From NCBI GenBank assembly GCA_964571255.1, contig CAZNAA010000001.1:620666-684665 (forward strand): a stretch of 64,000 bases of DNA, in the 5' to 3' direction. This document shows positions 19,831 to 40,381 of this stretch, piece after piece; the stretch's first letter is position 1; each line of letters starts with the position of its first letter. The notes beneath the pieces were generated by a model. The model was not told the origin of the DNA. It made no database searches and saw nothing but the letters and a program-made list of their open reading frames with translations. The stretch is from an uncultured Gammaproteobacteria bacterium. Lineage in GTDB: Bacteria; Patescibacteriota; Microgenomatia; Levybacterales; UBA12049. The translations under genes were made by a program, and so were the position numbers.

Positions 19831-19858
19831 TTTATAAAACCGGAGCAAAATGAGTCAA
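19831..19858 (-). promoter_or_regulatory. Promoter TTGACT(19853-19858)-N16-TATAAA(19831-19836) for lon-like/rnj operon
   Basis: near-consensus hexamers on minus strand. Confidence 0.35.
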
Positions 19859-19867
19859 AGACTACTC

Positions 19868-22258
19868 TTAATAGTGGACTTTACGACGAGCTGAGGAGGA
19901 AGGAGATGAACTCCGTCCGTCCCGAGAAGCATTTTGTCTTTTAAGTTGTTCTGTTAACGGATGAAGTGGTGGTCTATCACTACTTGATCTCTCTGGTCTA
20001 GGTCCCCTGTATCCTCCACTAGCTGCTCTAGGTCCACGATCTCCACCACGTCTATCTCCTCCACGATCTGAATAAGGAGGGCGACTTGTGCCTCCACCTT
20101 CTCTTCGAGGTCCACGATCTCCACCACCACTACTTCGTGCTGGTCCTGTATCTTCACTATCTAAAAGCATAGTCAAATTAATTCGTCCTTGATCATCAAT
20201 TTCAACTACGCGCACCTTTACCATTTGTCCAAGTTGGACAACGTCTTCTGGACTGTTTACAAATTCTTTGGACATTTTGGAAACATGAACAAGTCCTTCT
20301 TTTCCAGGAAGTACCTCAACAAAAGCTCCAAAATTTAAGATTCGTTTTACTTCTCCTTCAAATTCTTCCCCAACCATTACTTCTCGCATCATGCCAGTAA
20401 CCCAATCAACTGCTTTTTGAACTGATGCTTCGTCCACTCCTGAGACCGTAACAGTTCCATCATCTTCAACATCAACCGTTGCACCAGTTTGAGCAATGAT
20501 ATTTTTAATCACTTTTCCTCCAGGCCCAATGAGTTCTCCAATCTTGTCAACGGGAATTTGGAGTGTTTCAATCTTTGGAGCATACATCGAAACTTCTTTT
20601 CGAGGCTCTGCAATCGTTTTTGTCATGGTCTCAAGAATTTGCATTCGAGCTGTCTTTGCTCGAGCAAAGATTTCAGCAATTTCCTCAACTGAAAGACCTG
20701 GAATTTTTACATCCAACTGAATTGCCGTAACTCCTGTGTCAGTTCCTGCTACTTTGAAATCCATATCCCCTGAGAAGTCTTCAAGACCAATAATGTCTGT
20801 AAGAAGCGCTGATGCACCATCAACTGACATTCGTCCAATCGAAATTCCTGCAACTGGCTTTAAAATGGGAACTCCAGCATCCATTAGAGCAAGAGTTGAT
20901 CCACAGGTTGATGCCATTGAGGATGATCCATTTTGGGAAAGAACTTCAGATACGAGTCTAATGGTATAAGGGAAGTCTTTTTGTGAAGGGATTACTGCTT
21001 GCAAAGCTCGTTCTGCAAGTGCTCCGTGTCCAATCTCACGCCGAGATGGAGAGCCAATTCTTCCTGCTTCTCCAACGGAGAAAGGTGCTGCGGAGTAGTG
21101 ATGGATATAGCGTTTTGACTCTTCACCTTCTGCTGACTCAATAAGAAGCTCCATACGAGGGGATCCAAGCGTTGCAATGGTTAGAGCCTGAGTAAGACCG
21201 CGTTGGAAAACAGCTGAACCGTGAGTTCGTGGAAGAACTCCAACTGTGGTAGTGATTTCTCGGATTTCATCCATTTTTCGTCCATCAGGTCGTTTAGATT
21301 TTTCAACTACATTTGATCTAATTTTTTTAAACATCAAATACTCAACAGCTTTGGATAGAAGTTTTTTATCCATAGTTGTATTTGGATCTGCCATTTTGGC
21401 ATCAGTAGAGATAGCAGTTAGCAAATCATCTGTCTCTGTTCCTGAGCCTTCTTTATTAGCCCTCGTTGCGATCAGTCCTTCAACCTCTTTGGCATAGCCT
21501 TTTTCAACAAATTTAACAGCATCCATAAGCGCTGTATTTTGTGGAACAGCTTGTTTTTTCTGTCCAACCTTTTTGACTAATTCTTCAATAAGTGAGAGAA
21601 TTTTTGCTGTTTCTGTATGAGCCATTTTTACTGCTTCAACTAACACTTCCTCAGAAACTTGAAGAGCTCCAGCTTCAATCATGTTGGTCTTATCTTTAAG
21701 TTGGGAGAAAACGATATCTAAATCCGAATGCTCTGCTTCACTTGCAGTTGGATTTGGAAGAAATTGTGACGAATTTCCTTCTTTTTCTGTTATATACCCA
21801 ATACGAACTGCTCCAATTGGTCCACTCCAAGGAATACTAGAAATAGCAAGAGCTGCAGAAACGGCATTAACAGCAACGATATCTGGCTCATGTTCTGAAT
21901 CAACAGATAAAACGGTTGCAATCACTTGTACTTCCTGTTTGAATTCTTTGGGAAAAAGAGGACGAATAGAGCGATCAATAAGACGGCCAATCAGAATAGA
22001 TTCATCTGTTGGACGACCTTCCCGTTTTACCCAACGACTTCCTTTAATGCGTCCGCCTGCATAAAGTTTTTCAACGTATTCAACACTGAGTGGGAAATAA
22101 TCAATATCATCACGTGCTTTACCCTCAACAACGGTCACAAGTACGACAGTATCCCCAAGAGTTGCGAGAACTGATGCGGTTGCTTGTGGAGCAAGAAGCC
22201 CTGTTTCTAATGTTAATGTTTTCCCTGCAAATTCTGCAGATACTGAGGTCTTAGCCAT
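19868..22258 (-). CDS. pnp: Polyribonucleotide nucleotidyltransferase (PNPase) with ~110-aa Arg/Gly/Ser-rich C-terminal tail
   Basis: two RNase PH domains, KH and S1 domains; tail RGPRREGGGTSRPPYSDRGGDRRGGDRGPRAASGGYRGPRPERSSSD. Confidence 0.95.
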   Translation of the reverse strand: MAKTSVSAEFAGKTLTLETGLLAPQATASVLATLGDTVVLVTVVEGKARDDIDYFPLSVEYVEKLYAGGRIKGSRWVKREGRPTDESILIGRLIDRSIRPLFPKEFKQEVQVIATVLSVDSEHEPDIVAVNAVSAALAISSIPWSGPIGAVRIGYITEKEGNSSQFLPNPTASEAEHSDLDIVFSQLKDKTNMIEAGALQVSEEVLVEAVKMAHTETAKILSLIEELVKKVGQKKQAVPQNTALMDAVKFVEKGYAKEVEGLIATRANKEGSGTETDDLLTAISTDAKMADPNTTMDKKLLSKAVEYLMFKKIRSNVVEKSKRPDGRKMDEIREITTTVGVLPRTHGSAVFQRGLTQALTIATLGSPRMELLIESAEGEESKRYIHHYSAAPFSVGEAGRIGSPSRREIGHGALAERALQAVIPSQKDFPYTIRLVSEVLSQNGSSSMASTCGSTLALMDAGVPILKPVAGISIGRMSVDGASALLTDIIGLEDFSGDMDFKVAGTDTGVTAIQLDVKIPGLSVEEIAEIFARAKTARMQILETMTKTIAEPRKEVSMYAPKIETLQIPVDKIGELIGPGGKVIKNIIAQTGATVDVEDDGTVTVSGVDEASVQKAVDWVTGMMREVMVGEEFEGEVKRILNFGAFVEVLPGKEGLVHVSKMSKEFVNSPEDVVQLGQMVKVRVVEIDDQGRINLTMLLDSEDTGPARSSGGGDRGPRREGGGTSRPPYSDRGGDRRGGDRGPRAASGGYRGPRPERSSSDRPPLHPLTEQLKRQNASRDGRSSSPSSSARRKVHY

Positions 22259-26617: not shown

Positions 26618-26754
26618 GAAGAGACCCGAGCATTCAATCCGTACATGAAAGAATTGACAATAAAAGTCCTATAGTTTACAATTGGAACATGGCAAAGATA
26701 GCTTTCTTAAGCTATTTAGTCGTTCTTTAACAGTAATACATGGGTTTTTCATAT

Positions 26755-26805
26755 CTAGCTTAGGAGATAAGGTTATACCTTTTATAGCTTTTTTTCCTAA
26801 GCTAG
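26755..26805. repeat. 11-bp perfect inverted repeat CTAGCTTAGGA / TCCTAAGCTAG with 29-nt AT-rich spacer at the AT-rich/GC-rich boundary
   Basis: arms 26755-26765 and 26795-26805. Confidence 0.6.
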
Positions 26806-26820
26806 TAGCAAGGGAATCAA

Positions 26821-26842
26821 TACGCTACCACCTGGTAGCGTA
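26821..26842. promoter_or_regulatory. 22-bp perfect palindrome TACGCTACCA-CC-TGGTAGCGTA 25 nt upstream of ATG 26868 (operator-like or 5'-UTR stem)
   Basis: 10-bp arms, GC-rich like the downstream gene; followed by AGGAGG RBS. Confidence 0.55.
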
Positions 26843-26867
26843 TCTCATCCAGCAGGAGGTAGTCACC

Positions 26868-27467
26868 ATGGCGATCAACGGAAAGTTTGTTGCGTCGGCG
26901 ACGCTACTCGTTAGCCTCTTTCTCTTAGCATTACTAGGCGGAAAGAGCGGAGTGGGGTCAGAACACTACATCCCGCGTCATCAGAGTATTATTCTCATCG
27001 CTACACCCGCACTTGAGCGGGGAGAGTGCTTCGAACTTCGTTTGGAGATCGAGGAAACCTACTCCCCGACCGAACGGATGTATCACACACGAACCTTACT
27101 CACGAAGGAGGATTGGTGCAAGCTGATTGGCGCGGAGCCAGAGCTTGTCTACCAGGTCGGCAAAAATATCCGATCCGCCTCTTCTCAAATATCGATAGAT
27201 GGAGGAACGGTACGGATCGGAGGGCTTCTGAGGCCATTTGGTGCTCAGGAGCACTACAGCGTCACATACCAAGTGACGATAGATACCAGCTGGAAGTGGC
27301 AAGAGAGCTTCGGGTCCAAGGGGCCCGAATACACTCTTTTCCGCATGGGCGATAATCAAAACTCGCCCCCGGCAGATTACATACTCGAAATCACGGAACC
27401 TGAAGGAGTCTCCATTCTCACTGATGAGGGGAGGTATTCCAACTTCGTGATGTCCAAGTCACGCTGA
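26868..27467 (+). CDS. Hypothetical secreted protein encoded in a GC-rich islet (~199 aa, N-terminal signal/TM)
   Basis: AGGAGG 8 nt upstream; MAINGKFVASATLLVSLFLLALLGGKSG...; local GC ~55% versus ~38% flanks. Confidence 0.55.
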   Translation: MAINGKFVASATLLVSLFLLALLGGKSGVGSEHYIPRHQSIILIATPALERGECFELRLEIEETYSPTERMYHTRTLLTKEDWCKLIGAEPELVYQVGKNIRSASSQISIDGGTVRIGGLLRPFGAQEHYSVTYQVTIDTSWKWQESFGSKGPEYTLFRMGDNQNSPPADYILEITEPEGVSILTDEGRYSNFVMSKSR

Positions 27468-27657: not shown

Positions 27658-30033
27658 TTATTTAGAAATCGTATAGATAATTTCTTCATTCTCAACTGAA
27701 AATACTACCTTACTTCCCCGTTGCAGCATATCTTGCAGTTTCATTTTCGCTAAAGCATCCTCAATCGTATCCTGAATATAGCGTCGTAAAGGCCTGGCTC
27801 CAAACTGATTATTAGCTCCATGTGTAGCAATAAAGCCCAAGATGCTTTGATCAAAGCTAACCAAAAAATCTTGTTCTTCAAGGTATTTTGTTAACGATGC
27901 AAGCATGAGCTTGGTCACTTCTATTTGTTCCTGCGCAGAAAGAGGTTCAAACATGATGACATCATCAAATCGATTCAAAAGTTCAGGAGTATACAACCCT
28001 TGTGTTTGCAAAAATTCTAACAGATCTGTTTTCAACTGTTCTGCTTGAGTTTCTGCTTGAATTTTTTCTCGAATAAATTCTGCCCCTGCATTTGAAGTTG
28101 CAATAATGATTGCATTTTTAAAGGACACAACTCTTCCTAACGCATCTGTTAGTCTTCCATCGTCAAGTACCGGAAGGAGAAGATTTAAAACATCTCTGTC
28201 TGCTTTTTCAAATTCATCAAGAAGAATAAGACTAGAGGGATGATCCCGAACAGCTTCTGTTAATTCTCCTCTTCCATTATTTCCTCCAGGCATGCCAATC
28301 AGTCTCGCAACTCCTTCTGCTCCTCTAAATTCACTCATATCAAATCGAAGCATTTTCCCTTCTCCTCCAAAATAGACTGAGGCTAAGGCTTTAGCTGTTT
28401 CTGTTTTTCCAACTCCGGTTGGACCTAGAAACAGAAACGAAATAGGTTTTTTAGGAGGTTCTATATTTGACCGAATTCGCCTCACTGCCTCGGCAATTGC
28501 CACAGTTGCGTGCTGTTGACCAATAATTCTCTCTTGTAACTTGTCTTCAAGGGACAAAAGAGTTTTCTTTTCTTCTTGGCTTGGAGGAAGAGCCGTCGCA
28601 ACCCCTTTTTGTCCAACCGTTTGAGCAACATCTGATTCTTCTAAGAATTGTACTTGTCTTGTCTGGTGGACCCGTTGCCTGACATATCGGATACTGTCCT
28701 CAAGAAGGTTTATCGCACTTCCCGGAAGAACAACGTCTTGGGCATAAGAATCAGAGAGGCGAATTGATTCACGTAAGGCTTGATAACGGATTTTTACTCC
28801 AGTTCGTTTCTCTAAGTCTTCAACTTTTTCACATAAGATATGGAGTGCCGTTTGTTTATCAGGCTCTGAAATAGTAATAACCGTAAAAGCCTCACGAGCT
28901 GGACTATTTTCTAAGTATTGCTTATAGGCAGCTTGGGTCATAGTTGCAATAACAGGAAGTTTCCCATTTTTTAAATAAGGAAGGAGCGCTTCGGCAATAT
29001 TTACCTGGAAAGTAGGATTTCCCAGAATGTTTTCTAAGGCTGGAATATACAAAAGTACGTTATAAGAATGAGACACTTCTTGAATAATGGTTTGTAGCCT
29101 CGTTTCCAAATCAGCTCTATTAGCTGCTCCTGCCAAAAGTTGTCCTACCATTAACTCCAAAATTCGTCTGAAATTTAACTTTTCGGTAAGATTTCCAGAT
29201 TCTGTATCAAAAGCAAAGGCTTTTATGATACTCTCCTTCCCTACACCAATATCTCCAACCAGTAACACGTTATTATTCTCTGGTTTCTGAAGCGTTCCAA
29301 TTAACTCTTCATATTTTGCCTCTCTACTAAATAAATGAGGCCTTTGATAAGAGGAATAATAAAATTCTTGCGTATACTTTTGCGTTTCTGGGGTCCAGCC
29401 AGAAACTACTGCGTCTCCTATTCCTCTGCCACTGACCCGTACTCGAAACGGTTGTGGGTTTTCTTCTTCTGGATGAGCCATTCGAACCCAAGAGAGAAGA
29501 ACAAGGAGATCCTCTCGTTTTAAGTGGAGATTAAAAAGGGTTTGGCTTTGTTCCTCAATAAGCAACAAATAAGAAGCTAATAAATCCATTCGTAAAATGT
29601 ATTTACCCTTCACTTCTGTTGCTAATTCATAGGCAGTACGTAATAGTTGTTGCTGATCCACAAATATCTGAGGAATCATCTGTTTCTCAACTCCAAACCG
29701 GGTGAGAAAGAACTGCCCTTCAACCGTATTTAAAATATTGATTATTCCCCTTGTTCCTTTTTGATAGGCCAAAAGAGCATCAAGCGTACAACACTGGGTT
29801 AAATCAGAAGGATTTTCTGGAATCGTTTTATCAGGCATCATATGGCCTATTTTTCCAAAAACAAACAGCTCAGACGTAATTAAAAATTGAGTTAAAAAAA
29901 GCAAATAAGGAAAAAGGACTTTAGTCTCCCAAGAAAGATAGGCCAAATAGCTTAGTATTAAGACGCCTACTCCTCGAACAATAAGAAATTGCCAGGAAGT
30001 ATAGACTTGATAAATATGGGCAAAATATTTCAT
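27658..30033 (-). CDS. Hsp100/Clp-family ATPase paralog: N-terminal 2-TM anchor + Clp_N-like repeats, degenerate AAA D1 (Walker A GDIGVGKES, Walker B lost), intact D2, no M-domain
   Basis: TMs FLIVRGVGVLILSYLAYLSW / VLFPYLLFLTQFLITSELFVFG; D2 [55 protein letters not shown]; start overlaps upstream gene stop (ATGA). Confidence 0.85.
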   Translation of the reverse strand: MKYFAHIYQVYTSWQFLIVRGVGVLILSYLAYLSWETKVLFPYLLFLTQFLITSELFVFGKIGHMMPDKTIPENPSDLTQCCTLDALLAYQKGTRGIINILNTVEGQFFLTRFGVEKQMIPQIFVDQQQLLRTAYELATEVKGKYILRMDLLASYLLLIEEQSQTLFNLHLKREDLLVLLSWVRMAHPEEENPQPFRVRVSGRGIGDAVVSGWTPETQKYTQEFYYSSYQRPHLFSREAKYEELIGTLQKPENNNVLLVGDIGVGKESIIKAFAFDTESGNLTEKLNFRRILELMVGQLLAGAANRADLETRLQTIIQEVSHSYNVLLYIPALENILGNPTFQVNIAEALLPYLKNGKLPVIATMTQAAYKQYLENSPAREAFTVITISEPDKQTALHILCEKVEDLEKRTGVKIRYQALRESIRLSDSYAQDVVLPGSAINLLEDSIRYVRQRVHQTRQVQFLEESDVAQTVGQKGVATALPPSQEEKKTLLSLEDKLQERIIGQQHATVAIAEAVRRIRSNIEPPKKPISFLFLGPTGVGKTETAKALASVYFGGEGKMLRFDMSEFRGAEGVARLIGMPGGNNGRGELTEAVRDHPSSLILLDEFEKADRDVLNLLLPVLDDGRLTDALGRVVSFKNAIIIATSNAGAEFIREKIQAETQAEQLKTDLLEFLQTQGLYTPELLNRFDDVIMFEPLSAQEQIEVTKLMLASLTKYLEEQDFLVSFDQSILGFIATHGANNQFGARPLRRYIQDTIEDALAKMKLQDMLQRGSKVVFSVENEEIIYTISK

Positions 30034-30377
30034 ATGGCAGATACGATACTCATGATAACAAGAATGGTAACGACAAAAGGAAATCCAATAATAAAACTCA
30101 AAAGGAGTAGCTCAATAAAAAGAATCGGAAGCATCAGAATAAGCCACGTTAAAATAATACATAGTTTCACAAAAATTCCCATCACAATAGAGAATCTCAC
30201 AAGTCCTTCTCGATATTCATTTTTAATTGGTTGAAAAAAGGTTTGGAGAAGCATTTTTATGGAGAACATATGCATAAATGCCTTATTAAATGAGAGAAAA
30301 AAAAGTACTGCTTCTCGAGGTACTTCAATAAACCAAAAATGCAGAAAATAAAGAGGCAAAAGGGAGATATGTGACAT
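30030..30377 (-). CDS. Small polytopic membrane protein (115 aa, ~3 TM)
   Basis: hydrophobic ORF embedded in operon. Confidence 0.5.
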   Translation of the reverse strand: MSHISLLPLYFLHFWFIEVPREAVLFFLSFNKAFMHMFSIKMLLQTFFQPIKNEYREGLVRFSIVMGIFVKLCIILTWLILMLPILFIELLLLSFIIGFPFVVTILVIMSIVSAI

Positions 30378-30415
30378 GCTTTCAGTCTAAAGGGTTTTTA
30401 ATGGGTTTGCAATTT

Positions 30416-33280
30416 CTATGCAGCTGCAGAAAGTGTCGCACCCGTTGCTGGAGGTTTCGGAGCATCAGGCTGTGACTGATTAAACTCTTGCGTCGGTGGT
30501 AAATTCCACCCAGAAGAAGAAGCAGCAGGAGGAGGAGGTACAGCTGATACAGGGGATGAACTCATAACTGGTGCACCTTCAGTTATTGGAGGCAGCGATG
30601 ATACAGGAGAAGGGGTAGAAGCGAGTAGAGACGGAGGTACCTCTACTGGAGGCATTTGAGATGTGTCAGCAAGATTCTTTTCACTCATTGGATCAATTTC
30701 ATCTAGTTTTGCATCAGGAGTTGGAGGGATTTCTTCTCCTTGAACAGGAGAGGCATCCGGTTTTGCACCACCTGCACTAGCAGAGCCTTTAGCAAAGGTG
30801 AATTCTGATTTTGTAGCGTCGTATCCAACTAAAATAACATCAGGTGAGGCAAATGTTTTCCCAATAAGCTTGACTGCGATGGGATTTTCAATAGAGGTTT
30901 GAATCAACCGTCGTAACGGACGAGCTCCATAGACTGGATCATATCCTTCCTTGGCAAGCTCCATGAGAGCAGATTGGGTAATTTGGAGATCAAGTCCTTG
31001 CTCTTGAAGCAGATGGGCTGTTTTGGCAATATTATTTTTGGCAATTGAGGCCATATCAGCTTGTGCTAGAGGCTTAAAGACAACTACTTCATCAAATCGA
31101 TTCAAAAGCTCTGGCTTGAAAAACTTATGCAACTCATCAGAAAGAAGTGAATTAAGGTCTGCAAAGTCTTTCTGATACTCCTCCTCAGTTGCATGAGGTT
31201 TGCTCATTTGCTGCTGGATCAAAGCACTTCCGATATTTGAAGTAGCAATAATAATGGTGTTTTTGAAAGAAATAGTATTTCCTTTGTTATCCGTAAGTCT
31301 CCCATCCTCAAGCAGTTGCAGTAAAATATTAAAGACATCAGGATGGGCTTTTTCAATCTCATCAAGAAGCACAATGGAGTACGGTTTTCGTCTTACTGCT
31401 TCTGTTAATTGACCACCCTCTTCATAGCCAACATAGCCTGGAGGAGCTCCGATAAGCTTGGCTACTTCATGTTTTTCCATATACTCACTCATATCAAGTC
31501 GAACAAGTGCGTCTTCTTTGCCAAAAAGAATTTCAGCTAGGGTCTTGGCCAACTCTGTTTTTCCAACTCCAGTAGGGCCGAGGAAAATAAATGAAGCAAT
31601 CGGACGAGTAGGACTTGCGAGTCCAATTCTTCCTCTTTGAACTGCCTCTGTTACTGATTGGACAGCTTCTTCTTGCCCAATAAGACGTTTGTGGATAAGC
31701 TCAGCCAAGTGAAGTAGTTTTTCTCCTTCATCTTCAGTCAATTTAGTAATAGGAATCCCTGTCCAACTACTTACAACCTTTTCAATATCTGATTTGACTA
31801 CTGCTGTATCTGTTTTTTTACCTGTTGAGTGTTGCAGCTTAACATCTGCTGCAGCCTCATCCATCAAATCCACTGCTTTATCTGGCAAAAATCTCTCTCC
31901 AATATATTTTTTTGACAAATGGACTGCGTCTTTTAAGGTTTCATCTGAAAAAGTCACACTATGAAACTTCTCATATTTTGGCTTAATGATTTGAAGCATC
32001 TCAACTGCAACTTCCTCAGTTGGTTCGTCAACTATAATTGGCTGAAAGCGTCTTTCAAAGGCTTTATCCTTTTCAAAATGCTTCCGATACTCACTGGTTG
32101 TTGTCGTTCCAATAAGCTGCAACTGTCCCCGAGCTAGATAGGGTTTAACAATATTTGAAGCATCCAGTGCTCCTCCCTCATCTCCTGCTCCAATAAGAGT
32201 ATGAATTTCATCAATGAAAAGAATGATCTCTCCACTCGCCTCAATGGTTTCTTTAATAACATCTCGAAGTCTCTCCTCAAACTCTCCCCGATGAGATGCT
32301 CCGGCCACAAGAGAGGCAAGATCCATTTGAATAATTCTTTTACCTGAGAGATCTTTTGGAGCAGTTCCTCCCACAATTGATTGAGCAAGGCCTTCAACAA
32401 TAGCCGTCTTTCCAACTCCTGCCTCTCCAATGATAATAGGATTATTTTTCGATCTTCTGAGTAAAATATGCACCATTCGCTCAATTTCTTTATCTCGTCC
32501 TGCAATCGGATCTAATTTTCCGTCTTTGGCTTGTTGAGTGAGATCAATTCCATATTTCTCCAAAACTGATTTTTTTCCCGTGTGATAGGTGGGATTTTTA
32601 GCAAGAGACTGAACAAGCTTATCTTTTTGAATTCCCTTCTCACTGAGTGCTTTATTCATCGATTCCAAAGAGGCAAGAGCTACGAGGAGATCTTCAGGTG
32701 AGATAAAGGCAACTCCTCGTCCTTTCACGTCCTTATATGCAGCATCAAAAACTGATTTGGTTTGATCACTCAGTTTTGGCTGCCCTGAAAAATTCCCTGG
32801 AATTTGTTTCGCTTGGATTTCTTTAGAAAGGGCTCCAACATCTACTGATTCTTTTTGCAAAAGAGCAAAAATTTCTTGATCAAAAAGAATTCCATATAAA
32901 AGCAAATCTGGCTCAATCTTTTCTTTTTTCAATCTTGTTGCTTCTTCTTGAGCATGGGTCAAGGCTTGGGAAGATCTCGCATCTAGATGAGAAAGAACTG
33001 ACATGTCTTGCTTGGTTGCAGGATCTAAGGAAGAAGACGTTGAGGCAACAGGTGTTTGTCCTATAGGAGCTTCTGGATCAAGAGGAGTTGGATCATTAGG
33101 AACAGGAGATACAGGCGTACTCGTTGCACCTGAAGAAGCTAATGGAGCTTGAGGTACAGGAGTAGCTACTGGCTGAGCAGATGGTGTTTGTCCGTCTTCT
33201 GGTTTATGAAATAAATTACCAAACATAGTTCCATTATGGACATAAGTTTTGTCAAAAAGCAACTTATAACCTGTCTTCAC
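30416..33280 (-). CDS. ClpA/ClpC-type Hsp100 ATPase (two Clp_N repeats, canonical D1 and D2, no long M-domain) with Pro/Ser/Thr-rich N- and C-terminal extensions
   Basis: D1 [32 protein letters not shown]; D2 [56 protein letters not shown]; 954 aa; overlaps upstream gene by 17 nt. Confidence 0.9.
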
Positions 33281-36200
33281 TTACAGGAGCTTTTTCCTCT
33301 GTTTTACTTGGTGGAATCTCTTCTTTTATCTCCATGTGTTGCACCTTCATCTCAGGCTTTTTCTCGTCACGTCTGGCAGGAAGTTTTGATTCTTCCTCTT
33401 GCTCTTTTTTATCGACATCCTCAAGTACATCTTTGGCTGCTTCTTGTTTGGCCTTCAAATAGCCAACAATTTCTGTTTGTGAGAAGCCTCCAATAAGAAG
33501 GAACGGCAGAATACCTGATACTTTTTTCATTCCTTCCTGTCTTTTTTCATTGACTGGAGAGGAAAGAAGGTTAATGGCCTCAGTAATCTCTTCAATATCT
33601 TGACTGATAAATTGAGCCTTTGGTACTTTTTGTCCTTGTCTAATTGGTTCATCGAGATTTTCATAGTTTTCCTTCCAGATTTTTTTGACTGCTTCATAAT
33701 CCTCAAGTGAGACGTTTTGAACTCTATTCACAACGGGGAAGGAGACATCTTTTTTAATCAGTGAGGTATTGGGTTTTTGCTGGCGTTGTTTGACCAACAA
33801 ACTATAAATAAATCCAGCTAACTGATCACCCTTGTCTTTGGCCTTTACTAGTTCCTCTTTGACTTTCTCAACGGTAACTACAGGCTGTACAGGTGTAACC
33901 GTTTGGATAAGTTGAGTAGCAAAAGGTGTTTGTTGTTGAGCCTCAAGACGGATTTGTTGGGTGAGATTAAAGACTGTTTCTTTACTCGCTTCTCCTCTTC
34001 CCTCAATCATATCCAAAAGTTGCGTGGCAAGTTTGTTGCCTTTTACTTGCTCTTCTTTAATAAAGGTAAGAAGTACTGTGTAGGACTCTTTCTCTTTTTG
34101 ATCAGTAATAAGCTCTGGTTTAAGAAGTTTCTCAACAATCTCTGTAACTTTTTGTGACTGAACTGGAGCAGGAGTAGATTGGACAGGAGTAGTTTGTTTT
34201 TGAACAAGTGTAGAAAGAACCGATTGGAGAGTTGTACTTCCTCGTACTTCTTTTATCGTTTGAGTTACTTGCTTAATCAGATCTTGCGTAATATTTTGAG
34301 GTGATTGGAGAATAGGGAGAAGTTGAGTAGCTAACTGATCACCTTTTTGGGCATCTTTGACAATCGTTTCTCGAATAGTCATAGCTGTTTCTTTTTCTTT
34401 TTGAGGAAGCAAATCAGGTTGAGCTAGGTGTTGGATAAAGGTAGCAACATGATTTTCTGTAATTTCCGTTGTCCCTTGTTGCAAATACGTATTGGTAATG
34501 TAGTTTACAACTGATTGATCTGTTTTATTAACTTGGCTCATTTGCTGAGTGAGAGAATTCATAACAGATGGAGAAAGAGATTGCGTTTGGGTAATAAGTG
34601 AGAGCAGTTGACGAGCTAGTGGAGTACCCAACACTGCTTCTTTCGTAATCGTTTCTTTCAAAACTTCTATATTTTGCTTGTCAGAAATGTTGGTAATCAC
34701 CTCAGGATGTGCGAGTTGGTTAATAATAGTAGTTAAGGCTTGCTCTGTTGAAACAGCTTGGGTACTACTCGACTGATCAGTTTTGGAGGAGATATATTGA
34801 TTAAGAGTTGTGGCAAAAGAGTTTCCCGCAACAGATTGCTGGCTTACGGTCTCTTTGACTTTCTCATAGACTGTTTTTTCGGTTATTTGAGTAACTCGCT
34901 CAGGTGTTGCAATGTTATTTAAGATATTAATTAACACTGGTCTGTCGTCTGAAACAGTAACAGGAGTTGAAACAATAGCACTGGATGCTTGCAATACGAC
35001 ATTGGCAAATTGATTCCCTCTTTGACTTTCATTTCTTAACGTCTCTCGAATCCTTTCAAATTGTTGTCTTTCAACAGGAGTTCTAGCCAGTTGAGGATTT
35101 GAGATTTGTTGGAGATTTTGAACAGACACAGGAGTACTCGTTTGCGTTGTTGTTGTCGTTTTTATTTGATTAGTATCGAACATGGCAATATCTCGCATAG
35201 TAGGAATTGCTACTTGGATTTGTTTGAGAACTTCATTTAACCTACTCACCTCTGTACTTCGAATAACAGGAGTTGATTGCTGCTGTTGCACTGAAACCGT
35301 TTGTCTTAATGGCCTTGCTTGAGGCAGTGACTTGGCCTGAGAGGCTGGAGTAACCGATTGAACGATAGGTTCTGAGAAAGGAAGTTGCAGCTTTCGTCCA
35401 AACGGCAAACTGAGAGCCTTTCCAGTTGGGAAGGAAGGAGGAGTAGGTGGAGGTGGTGGAGATAGTGGTTGACGATTAAGCATAGTATTTGAGAGAGCAA
35501 GAAACTGCTTCATTCCTGGAGCATCATTTAAAGCAAGACTAAATAGATAATCAAGAAAAATACGAAGCAAGATAAAGGGCAAAATCATAACAGCCCACAG
35601 CATCATGAGACAAATAGTGTAGAGAGCAAACGTTTCAGGAAGATTCACGCTACTGGCAAGACCAATAGCTTGTCTTGGTCCTCCTAGTAAAATATTCACT
35701 GCTGTTTGATAGACAGGAGTTGCCGTTTTCGTAACAATAGTTCCTGTTGGTTGATAAGAAAAAAGCGGAATGGTTGATTGCCACAAAGAGACAAGTCCTG
35801 CAAGGAGTACGGCAAAAAGAGGGCCATATAATACCCACCGGAAAAACTCCCCTATCCAAATTTTAGCGGTATTTCGAATCGGCCAGTAGAAAAGAAGCAG
35901 AGGGAAAATGGGAGAGATAATAATAAAAAACCACAATACTATTTTTCGAATAATAAGCATGGCAGCCATGGCATAATAGGTAACTGCAGTAAGTCTGGTT
36001 AAAAGAAGCGTCATGAACGCTGACTCATCAGTAAAGGAGTCTACTCGCTTGTACCCGATAAAGTCTTCATATTTAAATGCAATATTTAGCAAATTTTCTT
36101 GACTAATTGTTTGACGCACTGCAGCAGTGGCGGGATCTGGATTTCGCAGGAAAAACCCTTGGGTAATATCAGTTAGTTGATAAATGATCTGGACCATTCC

Positions 36201-36584
36201 AAATGAAAAGGTGACTAGAAGTAAAATTCCCACAAAGCGGGGAATAAATTTTTGCAAGCTAATATTACTTCCCCTAGTTATGAGCATCAAAAACGCTGTT
36301 GAGAGAATAAAGAGAGCAAAGAATGCATAGACAAGATTTCTGATAATAATCCAGAAAGGAATGAGAGGGTTTCCTTCGTTGCCTAACTGCACCCATTTGT
36401 AGTTTTCCAACGTCCAATCCAAAAACGCTCCAGCTCGTGCAGCTGTTTTTCCAACAAAGGTTACTTCATTATCAACAACCCACGTTCCAACTAAGTCAGC
36501 TGCAAAAATATGAGAGGGAACAAAGAACAAAAGAATACTAAAAATGGTAAGAAAAAGAAGAAAGTTGGGCAGCAAGCGTTTCAT
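33264..36584 (-). CDS. Large membrane protein (1106 aa): signal peptide + ~7-8 TM N-terminal module, poly-Pro linker, ~600-aa Gln/Thr/Ser-rich region of ~6 degenerate tandem repeats, acidic/Lys tail
   Basis: repeat signatures ETIVKDAQKGDQLATQLLPIL / ETITKEAVLGTPLARQLLSLI / EEQVKGNKLATQLLDMI / KAKDKGDQLAGFIYSLL / RNESQRGNQFANVVLQ / QQSVAGNSFATTLNQYI, each preceded by (H/Q)PE(V/L)IT-like segment. Confidence 0.8.
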   Translation of the reverse strand: MKRLLPNFLLFLTIFSILLFFVPSHIFAADLVGTWVVDNEVTFVGKTAARAGAFLDWTLENYKWVQLGNEGNPLIPFWIIIRNLVYAFFALFILSTAFLMLITRGSNISLQKFIPRFVGILLLVTFSFGMVQIIYQLTDITQGFFLRNPDPATAAVRQTISQENLLNIAFKYEDFIGYKRVDSFTDESAFMTLLLTRLTAVTYYAMAAMLIIRKIVLWFFIIISPIFPLLLFYWPIRNTAKIWIGEFFRWVLYGPLFAVLLAGLVSLWQSTIPLFSYQPTGTIVTKTATPVYQTAVNILLGGPRQAIGLASSVNLPETFALYTICLMMLWAVMILPFILLRIFLDYLFSLALNDAPGMKQFLALSNTMLNRQPLSPPPPPTPPSFPTGKALSLPFGRKLQLPFSEPIVQSVTPASQAKSLPQARPLRQTVSVQQQQSTPVIRSTEVSRLNEVLKQIQVAIPTMRDIAMFDTNQIKTTTTTQTSTPVSVQNLQQISNPQLARTPVERQQFERIRETLRNESQRGNQFANVVLQASSAIVSTPVTVSDDRPVLINILNNIATPERVTQITEKTVYEKVKETVSQQSVAGNSFATTLNQYISSKTDQSSSTQAVSTEQALTTIINQLAHPEVITNISDKQNIEVLKETITKEAVLGTPLARQLLSLITQTQSLSPSVMNSLTQQMSQVNKTDQSVVNYITNTYLQQGTTEITENHVATFIQHLAQPDLLPQKEKETAMTIRETIVKDAQKGDQLATQLLPILQSPQNITQDLIKQVTQTIKEVRGSTTLQSVLSTLVQKQTTPVQSTPAPVQSQKVTEIVEKLLKPELITDQKEKESYTVLLTFIKEEQVKGNKLATQLLDMIEGRGEASKETVFNLTQQIRLEAQQQTPFATQLIQTVTPVQPVVTVEKVKEELVKAKDKGDQLAGFIYSLLVKQRQQKPNTSLIKKDVSFPVVNRVQNVSLEDYEAVKKIWKENYENLDEPIRQGQKVPKAQFISQDIEEITEAINLLSSPVNEKRQEGMKKVSGILPFLLIGGFSQTEIVGYLKAKQEAAKDVLEDVDKKEQEEESKLPARRDEKKPEMKVQHMEIKEEIPPSKTEEKAPVSEDRL

Positions 36585-36702
36585 ACTATAAATTCATAAA
36601 AAGAGTAGACAGAATTACCTATCTCTCCTCTTGTATAGTAGCATATTTACTGACTCATATTGGAATAGATATTTAACAAATTGTGGATGAAAAAGAGATT
36701 CA

Positions 36703-36733
36703 GGTATCCCGCTGCAGTTAGCAGCGGAATACC
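36703..36733 (-). terminator. 13-bp stem hairpin GGTATcCCGCTGC-AGTTA-GCAGCGGaATACC followed on minus strand by UCUCUUUUUC
   Basis: seen directly; sits between GC-islet ORF and the Clp operon start. Confidence 0.5.
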
Positions 36734-36904
36734 ATACTCTTGCGATGATAGTGTGAAGGAGTAGTCTACGGTAGCCTGCATCTCCCACCCAATGGAATCA
36801 TGCCCCCAGCGTTTACCCACCCTGAGGCGCGTAGTCGCTTTGCAACCGCCTGCTCGTCTTCTTCTTTGGTACGGGCTTGACATGATCTCCATCCTTTCTT
36901 GTTG

Positions 36905-37276
36905 TTAACCATTTATCTGCTCGTCGATCATCGAGAGCAGCAGTTCGCGGACATTGTCCTCCGCTAACAACCGTCGGAGAGCAAGCCTCGTGATAGCACC
37001 CTTGAAGGCCGAGAGAAAGATCTCGATGATAGCGTGTTCGTGTTGGGAAGCAAAATTGTGTTTTTTTTGCTTCGCCAAATCCTGCCACCTCGGATAGTGG
37101 GGGCGTTCGTGGGGGAAGAACTTAACAGTCTTTTCCCCCCAGAAACGCCACCTGGGCCTGCGATGATCTACCCTATTGAACTTATCCCACGTTTCTATTG
37201 GAAGTAAGTCCACAAGTGCTACAACAAACGCTGTAGTATTGTTTTTGAGGTCGATTTGAGAATCTAGGATTTCCAT
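36905..37276 (-). CDS. Hypothetical protein in second GC-rich islet (~123 aa)
   Basis: GGAGG upstream of ATG 37276 (MEILDSQIDLK...); GC ~50%; overlapping alternative-frame ORFs judged spurious. Confidence 0.45.
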   Translation of the reverse strand: MEILDSQIDLKNNTTAFVVALVDLLPIETWDKFNRVDHRRPRWRFWGEKTVKFFPHERPHYPRWQDLAKQKKHNFASQHEHAIIEIFLSAFKGAITRLALRRLLAEDNVRELLLSMIDEQING

Positions 37277-37524
37277 TTTTCCCTCCTGCCCTCCTACCAC
37301 TGGTACATCCAGTAGTATTGAAGCAAGTAAAAAGAAAAGAAATTAATTCCTTCCCTCTTTCCTTGCTTCAAAAGATAACAGAGATTACGTTTCACAACTA
37401 TTAATGTGCAAGAGAATTAAAATATTCTAGGTTCTACTAGATTTCTGCATTCAGAAATAAGTTGAATCTAAAAACTGAGAAGATTATAAGATAAAAATAG
37501 AGAGATTGCAAACTATGGGGTTGA

Positions 37525-38406
37525 TTAGAACCAATTTTTCTTTTTGGAATCGGTACTATCAAATTCTTCCAGTAATTCTTTTTGTCTTTTCGTTACACTT
37601 TTTGGAATAGCCACTTTAATCTTGACGTAGTGATCTCCATTCCCGCCTCCTCTGATTCTTGGCATTCCTTTCCCAGAAAGTCTAATAAGCATTCCAGGTT
37701 GTGTTCCTGAGGGAATTTTTATCGTTACTTTTCCTTGAACTGTTTCAACAGGTAATTGAGTTCCGAGTACAGCTTGAGGAAAAGAAATCTCTTCTTCTGT
37801 AATAATGTCTGCTCCTTCTCTTTGATATCTGTTGTGAGGCTGTACATCAATAAGAACGTCATAGTTTTCAAATCGAATACGAGATCCTCGGTCTACCCCT
37901 GCTGGGATTTTTATCTTTTGTTTTTTCCCATCAATCGTTACTTCTTTTTCTACTCCTTTTATAGCATCATCAAAAGTAATGGTTAAGGAGTAAACAGGAC
38001 GACGTTGGGCTCTGGAGAAAGGTCCGCCGGCTCCTCCAAAAAATTGTTCGAAAATTTCAAAGGGATCTGAAAATCCGCCAGAATCAAATCCTTGGTTTTG
38101 AGAAGAAGAATAAGTATACGTAAATGGCCCTCCTCCTTGGAAAGGTCCACCAGGTCCTGGTCCCCCTGCTCCTGGACCTCCTTGATCAAAAGCAGCTGAA
38201 CCATATTGATCGTATAATTGTTTTTTCTGAGGATCTGAGAGAACTTCGTATGCCTTAGTTATTTCTTTAAATTTAGTTTCTGCTTCCTTAGTTTTATTTC
38301 TATCTGGGTGATACTGCAGTGCAAGCTTTCGATATGACTTTTTTATTTCATCAGGTGGAGATGATTTGGTAATTCCTAGTAATTGATAATAATCAGTTTG
38401 TGCCAT
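37525..38406 (-). CDS. dnaJ: DnaJ-family co-chaperone (J domain + G/F region + C-terminal domains; no Zn-finger CxxCxGxG repeats)
   Basis: YYQLLGITKSSPPDEIKKSYRKLALQYHPDRN. Confidence 0.9.
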   Translation of the reverse strand: MAQTDYYQLLGITKSSPPDEIKKSYRKLALQYHPDRNKTKEAETKFKEITKAYEVLSDPQKKQLYDQYGSAAFDQGGPGAGGPGPGGPFQGGGPFTYTYSSSQNQGFDSGGFSDPFEIFEQFFGGAGGPFSRAQRRPVYSLTITFDDAIKGVEKEVTIDGKKQKIKIPAGVDRGSRIRFENYDVLIDVQPHNRYQREGADIITEEEISFPQAVLGTQLPVETVQGKVTIKIPSGTQPGMLIRLSGKGMPRIRGGGNGDHYVKIKVAIPKSVTKRQKELLEEFDSTDSKKKNWF

Positions 38407-38467: not shown

Positions 38468-40381
38468 TTATTCTACCACTTCTCCTTCTTTTGCTTTTCC
38501 TTTATCTTCTCCCGGCTCTTTTTTCTCATCACCATCAGTTTTCCCATCTTCCTCAACTGCTTCAATTTCTGGTTCCTCAGTTGGATTAGGAGTAGATTGC
38601 ATATGTTGTCCAATTTTTTGCATAGATTCAGCTAACTCTTTGGATTTACTCTCAATCTCTTCTTTGCTTCCTGAATCAAGTACGCTTCTGAGACTACTGA
38701 TTTTTTCCTCAACTTCAGTTTTTATTTCATCAGTTATTTTCCCTTCAGCATCTTTAAGGGATTTTTCTGCAGTAAAGATGAGTGAGTCAGCCATGTTTTT
38801 AGCCTCAACTTGAGATTTTTTCTCTTCGTCTTCTTTTGCATGCAACTCTGCTTCTTTAGTCATTTTTTCAACCTCTTCTTTGGATAACCCAGTTGAGCCT
38901 TGAATCTTGATACTTTGCTCTTTGCCACTAGCTTTGTCTTTAGCCGTAACGTGCAAGATTCCATTGGCATCAATATCAAAAGTCACCTCAACTTGTGGCA
39001 TACCTCGTGGAGCTGGTGGAATTCCGTCTAGGATAAATCTTCCCAAGGATTTATTATCAGCTGCCATAGATCTCTCCCCCTGTAATACATTAATTTCAAC
39101 TTGTGTTTGGTTATCAGCAGCAGTTGAGAAAACTTGGGATTTACTCGTTGGAATAGTCGTATTTCGATTAATAAGAGGAGTTGAAACAGCACCAAGCGTC
39201 TCAATACCCAGAGTTAATGGAGTAACGTCTAAAAGAAGTACATCTTTAACATCTCCTGCCAATACTCCTCCTTGAATGGCTGCACCCATGGCAACGACTT
39301 CATCTGGATTTACTGACTTATTGGATTCTTTCCCAAAGTATTTAGAAACTGTTTCGATAATCTTTGGCATTCGAGTCATTCCTCCAACCAAAACGACTTC
39401 ATCAACCTCCGATGCTTTCATCCCAGCGTCTTTAAGAGCTAATTCTACTGGTTTAAGCGTTTTTTGAACTAAATCATCAACAAGTTGCTCAAGCTTGGAA
39501 CGAGTCAAAGTCAAAGTCAAATGTAGTGGGCCATTCTCTCCTTGGGTGATGAATGGTTGATTAATGGATGCCTCTTGTGAAGAAGATAGTTCAATTTTGG
39601 CTTTTTCAGCAGATTCTTTGAGACGTTGGAGTGCTTGAGGATCTTTTCTCAAATCAACGTTGTTTTCCTTTTTAAATTCATCGGCAATGTGATCAATAAT
39701 GACTTGATCAAAATCATCTCCTCCCAAATGAGTATCACCATTCGTCGACTTTACCTCAGTTACGCCTTCTCCTAACTCAAGAATAGAAATATCAAACGTC
39801 CCTCCGCCCAAGTCATATACGGCAATCGTATGAGAGTTTTTCTTATCTAAGCCATAGGCTAAAGCTGCTGCAGTTGGTTCGTTAATAATTCGTTTTACAT
39901 CAAGTCCAGCAATCTCTCCAGCTTGTTTGGTTGCTTGGCGTTGACTGTCATCAAAATAGGCGGGAACGGTGATAACTGCTTCTGTTACTTTCTCACCCAG
40001 ATAGGACTCTGCATCGGCTTTGATTTTTTGCAAAATCATGGCTGAGATTTCTTGTGGAGTAAAGGTTTTCCCATCAACCTCAACTACTGCCATTCCATCT
40101 CGTCCTTCTTTAACAGTGTATGGAAGCCATTTCAAATCGCGTTGTACGGATTCGTCTTTAAACTTTTTTCCCATGAGACGTTTGACTGAGAAAATGGTTT
40201 GTTTTGGCTTTAACACCATTTGGCGCTTAGCAACGTCTCCAACAACGTGGGAGATTGGGTCAACCACTGAAGGGATAACGTTTCTGCCTTCAGCTGAGTG
40301 GATAACATTTGCCATTCCACCTTGCATTACAGCAACGCATGAGTTTGTTGTTCCTAAATCAATTCCAATTATTTTACCCAT
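38468..40381 (-). CDS. dnaK: Chaperone DnaK (Hsp70)
   Basis: [31 protein letters not shown], acidic C-terminal tail. Confidence 0.97.

Follow-up and report, generated by a model that had tools for sequence, protein, structure and literature searches.

The window analysed here is a 64,000-nucleotide (nt) stretch of a Patescibacteria chromosome (assembly GCA_964571255.1, contig CAZNAA010000001.1, positions 620,666 to 684,665), and our subject is the interval between the stop codon of dnaJ and the start of the gene for a TrbL/VirB6-like membrane protein, both on its minus strand. This interval measures 940 nt in the window, as against 102 nt in two assemblies of a related strain (L084/L085). Read in the direction of transcription (minus strand, window coordinates), it begins 13 nt past the dnaJ stop with a sigma-70-like promoter sequence, TTGCAA-N17-TATAAT, at 37483..37511, which scored 10/12 in a promoter scan. 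Next is a structured 5′ leader of about 200 nt (37277..37476), recognised by folding against shuffled sequences, with a Shine-Dalgarno sequence, AGGAGG (37282..37287), 5 nt before an ATG; this site is predicted to be sequestered. The open reading frame that starts there, ORF1 (36905..37276), encodes a protein of 123 amino acids (aa) with an isoelectric point (pI) of 9.1 that is rich in tryptophan and arginine and has no cysteine and no transmembrane (TM) segment. A GC-rich 3′ segment that varies between strains (36753..36904) separates ORF1 from a predicted intrinsic terminator (36692..36741), and a spacer (36585..36686) leads on to the TrbL-like gene and the ClpB-like genes of the operon behind it.

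Comparison of three strains sets the limits of the element. Haplotype A consists of the window and L003, a Logan contig that is 100% identical to it over 2588 nt; its islet has ORF1 and the GC-rich stretch. Haplotype B, the sister strain (L087 and L001/L002, two ENA assemblies), has ORF1 followed by a 93-aa gene, here called ORF2. Haplotype C, the next relative after B, is known from the two independent assemblies L084/L085, in which the dnaJ stop is followed by 102 nt and then the TrbL-like start; L086 also has the strain C dnaJ, and its sequence ends about 50 nt past that gene. At the protein level, the genes next to the site in strain C share 92-96% identity with those of the window. In flanking genes, A and B differ by 0.21-0.38 substitutions per synonymous site (dS), whereas C is 0.63-0.87 from each of them, so strain C serves as the outgroup. 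Its empty site delimits an 838-nt segment (36687..37524, minus strand, GC 0.445), present in the window and absent from strain C; the first base of this segment directly follows the dnaJ stop, and it gives way to the spacer that strain C shares. That spacer is the ancestral dnaJ-to-TrbL-like sequence: it aligns end to end with L084/L085, and 97 of 100 aligned columns match L001. The promoter of the operon itself is probably located in this spacer (TGCTACTAT, an extended -10 sequence picked out by eye).

An initial annotation of the window had described a patch of about 50% GC and foreign composition here, islet 2, and a second one, islet 1, on the other side of the operon. Quantification bears out the composition: the GC content of 36703-37300 is 50.3% against 38.7% for the window, which with a standard deviation of 0.027 for 598-nt windows gives z=4.4, not the homogeneous GC that the same annotation had allowed for. 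Within islet 2, 200-nt windows peak at GC 0.535-0.545, and the sole comparable patch in the window is islet 1 (26800-27400). The size of islet 2 needs correcting. The GC-rich patch is real, but the inserted unit is 838 nt rather than about 600 nt. It includes an AT-rich promoter and the structured leader, neither of which had been flagged. The annotation had also proposed looking in relatives for the operon without its islets; strain C has the operon without islet 2 but with islet 1.

ORF1 is the only gene of the unit that both strains share. A GTG upstream of it is out of frame in the sister strain through a 1-nt indel, and its start is therefore placed at the ATG at 37276. The L001 version has 126 aa, and amino-acid identity between A and B is 79%. 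The ratio of nonsynonymous to synonymous substitution rates (dN/dS) between the window and L001 is 0.12, with 43 of the 70 differences at third codon positions, and by this low ratio ORF1 is a real protein-coding gene that is specific to the lineage. Its evolution is fast next to that of the flanking genes (dN 0.107 vs 0.010-0.015; dS 0.89 vs 0.21-0.38), and the GC content at its third codon positions (GC3) is 0.57-0.61 in the two strains vs 0.21-0.31 in neighbouring host genes. High GC3 and excess divergence fit a foreign origin with allele exchange or fast evolution. A bias expected of amelioration was considered and set aside: 32 sites have A/T in A and G/C in B and 24 the reverse, a split that gives no clear direction.

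The description of ORF1 as an orphan has held up. It has no match in Pfam, NCBIfam, PHROGs or PADLOC; its homologue clusters number two among 5.8 billion proteins, and exhaustive searching of 1.84 billion representatives with HMMER brought back solely its own cluster. A search of viral contigs yielded no relatives beyond strains A and B, nor did searches of metagenome contigs with degenerate peptide patterns or with an exact 25-mer from the terminator hairpin. One weak similarity is to the WRKYGQK-type strand of WRKY domains: the ORF1 segment RWRFWGEKTVK aligns with RWRKYGQKSVK of WRKY1, in a borderline phmmer match to PDB 2ayd (E=0.013; E=0.098 with a two-sequence profile). The C2H2/C2HC zinc ligands of the WRKY-GCM1 zinc-finger DNA-binding domain are not to be found in ORF1: it has no cysteine, and conservation is lacking at the positions that align with the ligands. 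Pfam WRKY does not match it at E<=10. We regard the WRKY-like similarity as an unsupported lead only.

The signals around ORF1 make up a complete set, as far as prediction goes. Both hexamers of the putative promoter are identical in L087, while the spacer between them has three substitutions. The whole leader folds at -67.7 kcal/mol (z=-5.6), and a 124-nt core of it reaches z=-6.0 in the window and -6.4 in L001. In the predicted fold a long A/U-rich hairpin occupies 37318-37371 and a second one 37294-37315, and CU-rich segments pair with the ribosome-binding site in an outer helix. Between the window and the sister strain two base pairs are changed on both sides and two on one side, and all four are still paired. 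Against Rfam, the leader gave sub-threshold, miRNA-like noise only. The Shine-Dalgarno sequence has a predicted unpaired probability of 0.02-0.10 at 15-45 °C in both strains. A role as an RNA thermometer through simple melting is not supported, as the ribosome-binding site stays at least 90% paired over that range in silico. By these folding results the real RNA structure of the unit is that of the 5′ leader, outside the stretch for which the initial annotation had suggested one.

At the other end, the hairpin with a 13-bp stem and U-tract that had been noted at 36703-36733 proves to be real. The core stem contains one G.U pair and is enclosed by an outer 5-bp helix (AAGAG/CUCUU) that is followed by UUUUU, and the structure is predicted at -29.1 kcal/mol (z=-7.0). 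Its stem is preserved in the sister strain, where the sole difference is a change of the G.U pair to G-C and the prediction is -34.2 kcal/mol. A simple terminator scan missed this hairpin because the T run begins more than 2 nt past the core stem. The thermodynamic prediction supports its reading as the terminator of the islet, just upstream of the TrbL-like/ClpB-like operon, and on this basis it would terminate transcription and insulate the operon. It has no counterpart in strain C and therefore belongs to the inserted segment.

Taken together, islet 2 is best read as the GC-rich centre of an accessory transcription unit, 838 nt long and self-contained, that is lodged exactly between the dnaJ stop and the upstream region of the operon in a Levyibacteriota (Patescibacteria) genome, a reading to which we give a probability of about 65%. 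Transcription would initiate at the unit's own TTGCAA-N17-TATAAT promoter. The leader of about 200 nt, in a three-helix fold, would pair the AGGAGG and keep translation of ORF1 low or gated, and the product would be a basic, W/R-rich soluble protein of 123 aa restricted to the lineage. The hairpin at 36703-36733 would end transcription and so shield the downstream operon from the new promoter, and the operon would retain its own promoter in the common spacer. The variable 3′ part holds a translationally coupled gene for a 93-aa protein with three TM segments in the sister strain and, in the window, unrelated sequence that gives no convincing sign of coding or structure. Atypical GC3 and excess divergence suggest a foreign source for the unit, with later allele exchange or fast evolution. 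As to what it does, a tentative guess that we consider rather unlikely is a two-gene accessory or conflict module, with a soluble nucleic-acid-binding or regulatory partner and a small membrane protein, of which the window retains the first gene.

Several points weigh against this account of a self-contained unit. Insertion in the ancestor of A and B and precise loss in strain C are indistinguishable by parsimony, and all collections searched yield only two alleles and one empty site. Nothing was found to account for movement of the segment: there is no transposase, and its ends show neither terminal inverted repeats nor a clear target duplication (visual inspection gave a weak, degenerate CC(C)A(Y)A(R)TTTG resemblance between the two junctions, which is not significant). 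The promoter and the terminator are consensus or thermodynamic predictions, and the ribosome-binding site of the gene they would serve is predicted to be closed at each temperature tried. The dS of 0.89 for ORF1 is based on only about 79 synonymous sites. AlphaFold2 gave ORF1 a mean confidence (pLDDT) of 43.6 from the single sequence and 45.3 from a two-sequence alignment, and no fold or family could be assigned. Finally, a 48-aa ORF (ATGGTTAA) at 36766-36912, whose ATG overlaps the ORF1 stop, could be a real second gene.

The segment behind ORF1 is where the two alleles part. As the initial annotation had said, 36734-36904 (GC 52.6%) has no convincing ORF: it holds short overlapping ORFs only, with no codon-position GC signal in any frame of the variable segment. 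An 81-aa ORF at 36647-36892 mostly crosses the terminator into flank that is non-coding in the sister strain. In the sister strain ORF2 begins 1 nt after ORF1 (TAG C ATG) and encodes 93 aa with three hydrophobic segments and a pI of 11.5. No family match above noise was found for ORF2, the 78-aa ORF or the 48-aa ORF in Pfam, NCBIfam, PHROGs or PADLOC, and the 81-aa ORF likewise matched no family. The variable segment shows no similarity to L001 ORF2 beyond that of shuffles. We also considered 36734-36907 as a deletion derivative of ORF2 and rejected it, as local and semi-global DNA alignments fall within the shuffle range; three-frame protein comparisons gave short, low-scoring matches (not shuffle-tested). 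The segment is probably a 3′ UTR (untranslated region) or the remnant of an exchanged second gene, and of the three options that the initial annotation had offered for it (structured RNA, 3′ UTR, decayed gene) the latter two are the best fit.

The sister-strain arrangement raises another explanation: a two-gene toxin-antitoxin or immunity-like module, in which ORF1 is a soluble antidote or regulator and a small membrane toxin encoded downstream has been lost or swapped in the window strain. In GhoS/GhoT (type V), a precedent, the gene for a membrane toxin stands behind that of its antitoxin, and in the sister strain, too, a small membrane protein is coupled behind a soluble one of about 125 aa. 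Such modules typically have a promoter and terminator of their own, a structured leader that sequesters the ribosome-binding site, a foreign composition and a presence that varies with the strain, all of which are predicted or seen here. Yet neither protein rises above noise in Pfam, NCBIfam, PHROG or PADLOC, with no similarity to known toxin-antitoxin or defence families, and neither an antisense promoter nor a repeat array is present. The pair of adjacent, co-directional, coupled small genes is present in one strain only (L001), the window having no second gene other than the doubtful 48-aa ORF, and the sister membrane protein (93 aa, three TM) is larger than typical membrane toxins. Purifying selection on ORF1 without its partner fits an independent function no less than an orphan antitoxin. 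On balance a toxin-antitoxin module seems doubtful.

A different origin is suggested by what relatives carry at the same position. The wider comparison covered 80 genomic loci with relatives of the TrbL-like gene, all from metagenome-assembled genomes and many labelled Candidatus Levyibacteriota or Patescibacteria; this places the window in the Candidate Phyla Radiation, as a member with about 39% GC. Of 38 relatives, 23 have 324-577 nt between dnaJ and the TrbL-like start, and another 14 have 1.0-6.3 kb there, with assorted genes; the gap is thus a hotspot. Some 70 Levyibacteriota loci have upstream sequence, and all of them except L078 have a gene of about 95 aa directly before the TrbL-like gene. 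A profile built here recovers this gene (E 1e-27 to 1e-50), and it also matches the Pfam family T4SS_pilin, PF18895, of type IV secretion system (T4SS) pilins (30.6 bits, cut-off 26.6). The cluster dnaK-dnaJ-T4SS_pilin(PF18895)-TrbL/VirB6-like-ClpB-like-(variable)-p115-ClpB-like is conserved across Levyibacteriota (L004-L083; e.g. pilin L005:9717-9998). The presence of the pilin gene in these loci agrees with the reported wide distribution of VirB2-like pilins in Patescibacteria (PMC12102498). Upstream of the TrbL-like match, some relatives (among L029, L037, L045, L047, L052, L054, L060, L068 and L072) have 2-4 tandem divergent pilin-like ORFs; in others a larger protein with a pilin-like domain lies on the opposite strand upstream of dnaK (e.g. 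L038:4459-5331). These tandem and variable ORFs agree with published reports that pilin arrays in Patescibacteria, including VirB2 arrays, are highly variable (PMC12102498).

No pilin gene was found at the locus in strains A, B or C, or anywhere in the 64-kb window. The segment might thus be a decaying remnant of the ancestral pilin region, with ORF1 or the downstream gene, or both, as extremely diverged pilin-locus genes. A PF18895 gene occupies this position upstream of the TrbL/VirB6-like gene in the roughly 70 loci, ORF2 resembles it in size, position and hydrophobic helices, and pilin arrays are, as noted, reported to be highly variable. The profiles speak the other way. The pilin profile found nothing at E<1 among window ORFs of at least 30 aa; with ORFs of at least 25 aa from the window, L001 and L084-L087 the best E was 0.41, for an unrelated ORF in the window; and hhalign gave a probability of 0.4% for the pilin profile against L001 ORF2, so that no homology is detectable. 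The islet's GC3 of 0.50-0.61 is far above that of host genes, whereas the relatives' pilin genes are near their own loci in overall GC, and the window version of the segment has no membrane-protein gene. Strain C has neither pilin gene nor islet, which argues that pilin loss and the islet were separate events. Descent from the pilin region is therefore very unlikely.

A structured non-coding RNA at 36734-36904, either a cis-regulatory element or a small RNA, had been among the suggestions for this stretch, which is GC-rich, is bounded by a gene and a terminator and holds no convincing ORF. A region that includes the terminator does fold at z=-3.1, an effect due to the terminator hairpin; without it, the minus-strand fold of 36738-36910 has z=-0.14, and 87 of 200 shuffles are at least as stable. 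Rfam has no match at the gathering threshold in the whole window, and at E<=10 over 36000-38000 it gives miRNA/snoRNA-type noise only, none of it inside 36734-36904. A scan of 36650-36905 was thus negative, and the sister strain has a wholly different, protein-coding sequence there, the combination on which the initial annotation had been prepared to drop its proposal for this stretch. A structured RNA here is highly improbable.

It is scarcely credible that the segment is a small mobile element of the IS200/IS605 type, or some other non-canonical one, in which ORF1 would be the transposase. It does resemble IS200 in its length of about 840 nt, its one small ORF, the hairpins close to either end and the leader that hides the ribosome-binding site, and in showing no terminal inverted repeats and no target duplication. 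But there is no Y1 transposase (PF01797) or other Pfam match at E<=10, the only H-x-H triplet of ORF1 (HEH) is HED in the sister strain, the segment is single-copy in the 64-kb window with none elsewhere in the loci and no other copy or homologue in the 5.8-billion-protein collection or in viral or metagenome contigs, and its 3′ part differs between the two strains.

Besides two-gene toxin-antitoxin modules and the pilin genes, two known systems come close to the accessory transcription unit. A phage moron, in the definition reportedly given by Hendrix and Juhala, is an independent promoter-gene-terminator unit of deviant base composition that sits between genes adjacent in related genomes. 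The 838-nt unit likewise stands between two genes, dnaJ and the TrbL-like gene, that are adjacent in strain C, and it has its own predicted promoter and terminator, a deviant composition (GC 0.50 vs 0.39; GC3 0.57 vs 0.21-0.31) and a cargo gene with no assigned function. Unlike a moron, it is found in a Patescibacteria chromosome next to dnaK, dnaJ, TrbL-like, ClpB-like and nusA genes and not in a phage or recognisable prophage, with no PHROG matches and no relatives in viral contigs, and its long leader is predicted to sequester the ribosome-binding site. Strain-variable ORFan genomic islets, which are accessory genes acquired horizontally at intergenic hotspots, offer the other parallel, as the unit varies among close strains, has atypical codon usage, evolves fast, lacks homologues and occupies a position that holds varied accessory genes in related genomes. 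It differs from them in being very small, with one gene, a clean boundary at a stop codon and complete expression signals, and in having no associated integrase, tRNA or repeats. The unit is a moron-like or ORFan accessory islet of an ordinary kind, strain-variable and well delimited.

Islet 1 (26800-27400, plus strand, GC 0.51-0.545) is flanked by nusA and by the 3′ end of the second ClpB-like gene. The product of an ORF within 26682-27467 (GC3 0.60) has about 199 aa and a hydrophobic N-terminus, the likely start being MAINGKF at about 26868; it has no match in Pfam, PHROG or PADLOC. Its homologue in strain C (L085:13275-13901) is 52% identical, as against 92-96% for flanking genes, and none was found in the 80 more distant Levyibacteriota loci. 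Strain C carries islet 1 but lacks islet 2, so the two differ in history, and sequence comparison shows them to be alike in composition and fast evolution only. The initial annotation had the two patches bracketing the operon exactly. This is correct as a matter of position but, given their different strain distributions, is not evidence of one element, and the view that the islets are dissimilar and form no composite transposon was right: they have no repeats in common. A composite element made of both was accordingly discarded.

The neighbouring genes are all on the minus strand. Upstream of the unit are dnaK (38468-40381) and dnaJ (37525-38406); downstream are the TrbL/VirB6-like gene (33264-36584, 1106 aa), a ClpB-like ATPase of 954 aa (30416-33280), a 115-aa ORF, p115 (30030-30377), and a second ClpB-like ATPase of 791 aa (27658-30033). 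The host organism of the window is rare, and the nearest DnaJ outside its own 90%-identity cluster is 71% identical. Codon 695 of the TrbL-like gene (L001:3045-3047; window ~34500) is changed from TAC to TAA in the sister strain, giving calls of 694 aa and 380 aa; either true pseudogenisation or an error in sequencing or assembly could account for this. At its 3′ end, the gene for the 954-aa ClpB-like ATPase has a short GC-rich stretch (window 30400-30600, 0.50-0.51). Relatives' matches to this protein mostly end at residues 831-885, and it may have a C-terminal extension specific to the lineage. The interval between this gene and p115 differs greatly in length between relatives. Further local GC peaks (0.48-0.53) occur at window 19850-21100, inside a 796-aa ORF at 19868-22258 (minus strand).

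For annotation, ORF1 should be kept with its ATG at 37276, the 78-aa and 81-aa calls that cross the terminator are doubtful, and the hairpin should be entered as a terminator. A bolder generalisation, speculative and quite improbable in our estimation, is that the unit represents an undescribed class of compact, transposase-free cassettes in Patescibacteria. Between its promoter and its terminator, each would have a leader locking the ribosome-binding site, a gene for a conserved W/R-rich protein (possibly a WRKY-like nucleic-acid-binding one) and an exchangeable second gene. Such a cassette would replace the pilin gene at the entrance to a T4SS-like/ClpB-like operon and act as a conflict module or a regulator of the host-interaction machinery, and the gene of islet 1, likewise rich in GC3 and fast-evolving, would come from the same donor pool. 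Existing ideas are not overturned by the accessory unit described here, and its value is descriptive unless ORF1 or the ORF1/ORF2 pair has a defined activity. The lineage lacks a pilin gene that is otherwise always at this position (L078 excepted), and the hotspot adjoins the conserved dnaK-dnaJ-pilin-VirB6-like-ClpB-like cluster, for which a link with host interaction is presumed. The unit offers a clean, small example of an ultra-reduced Patescibacteria genome that still harbours a foreign-composition, fully equipped single-gene unit at an intergenic hotspot.

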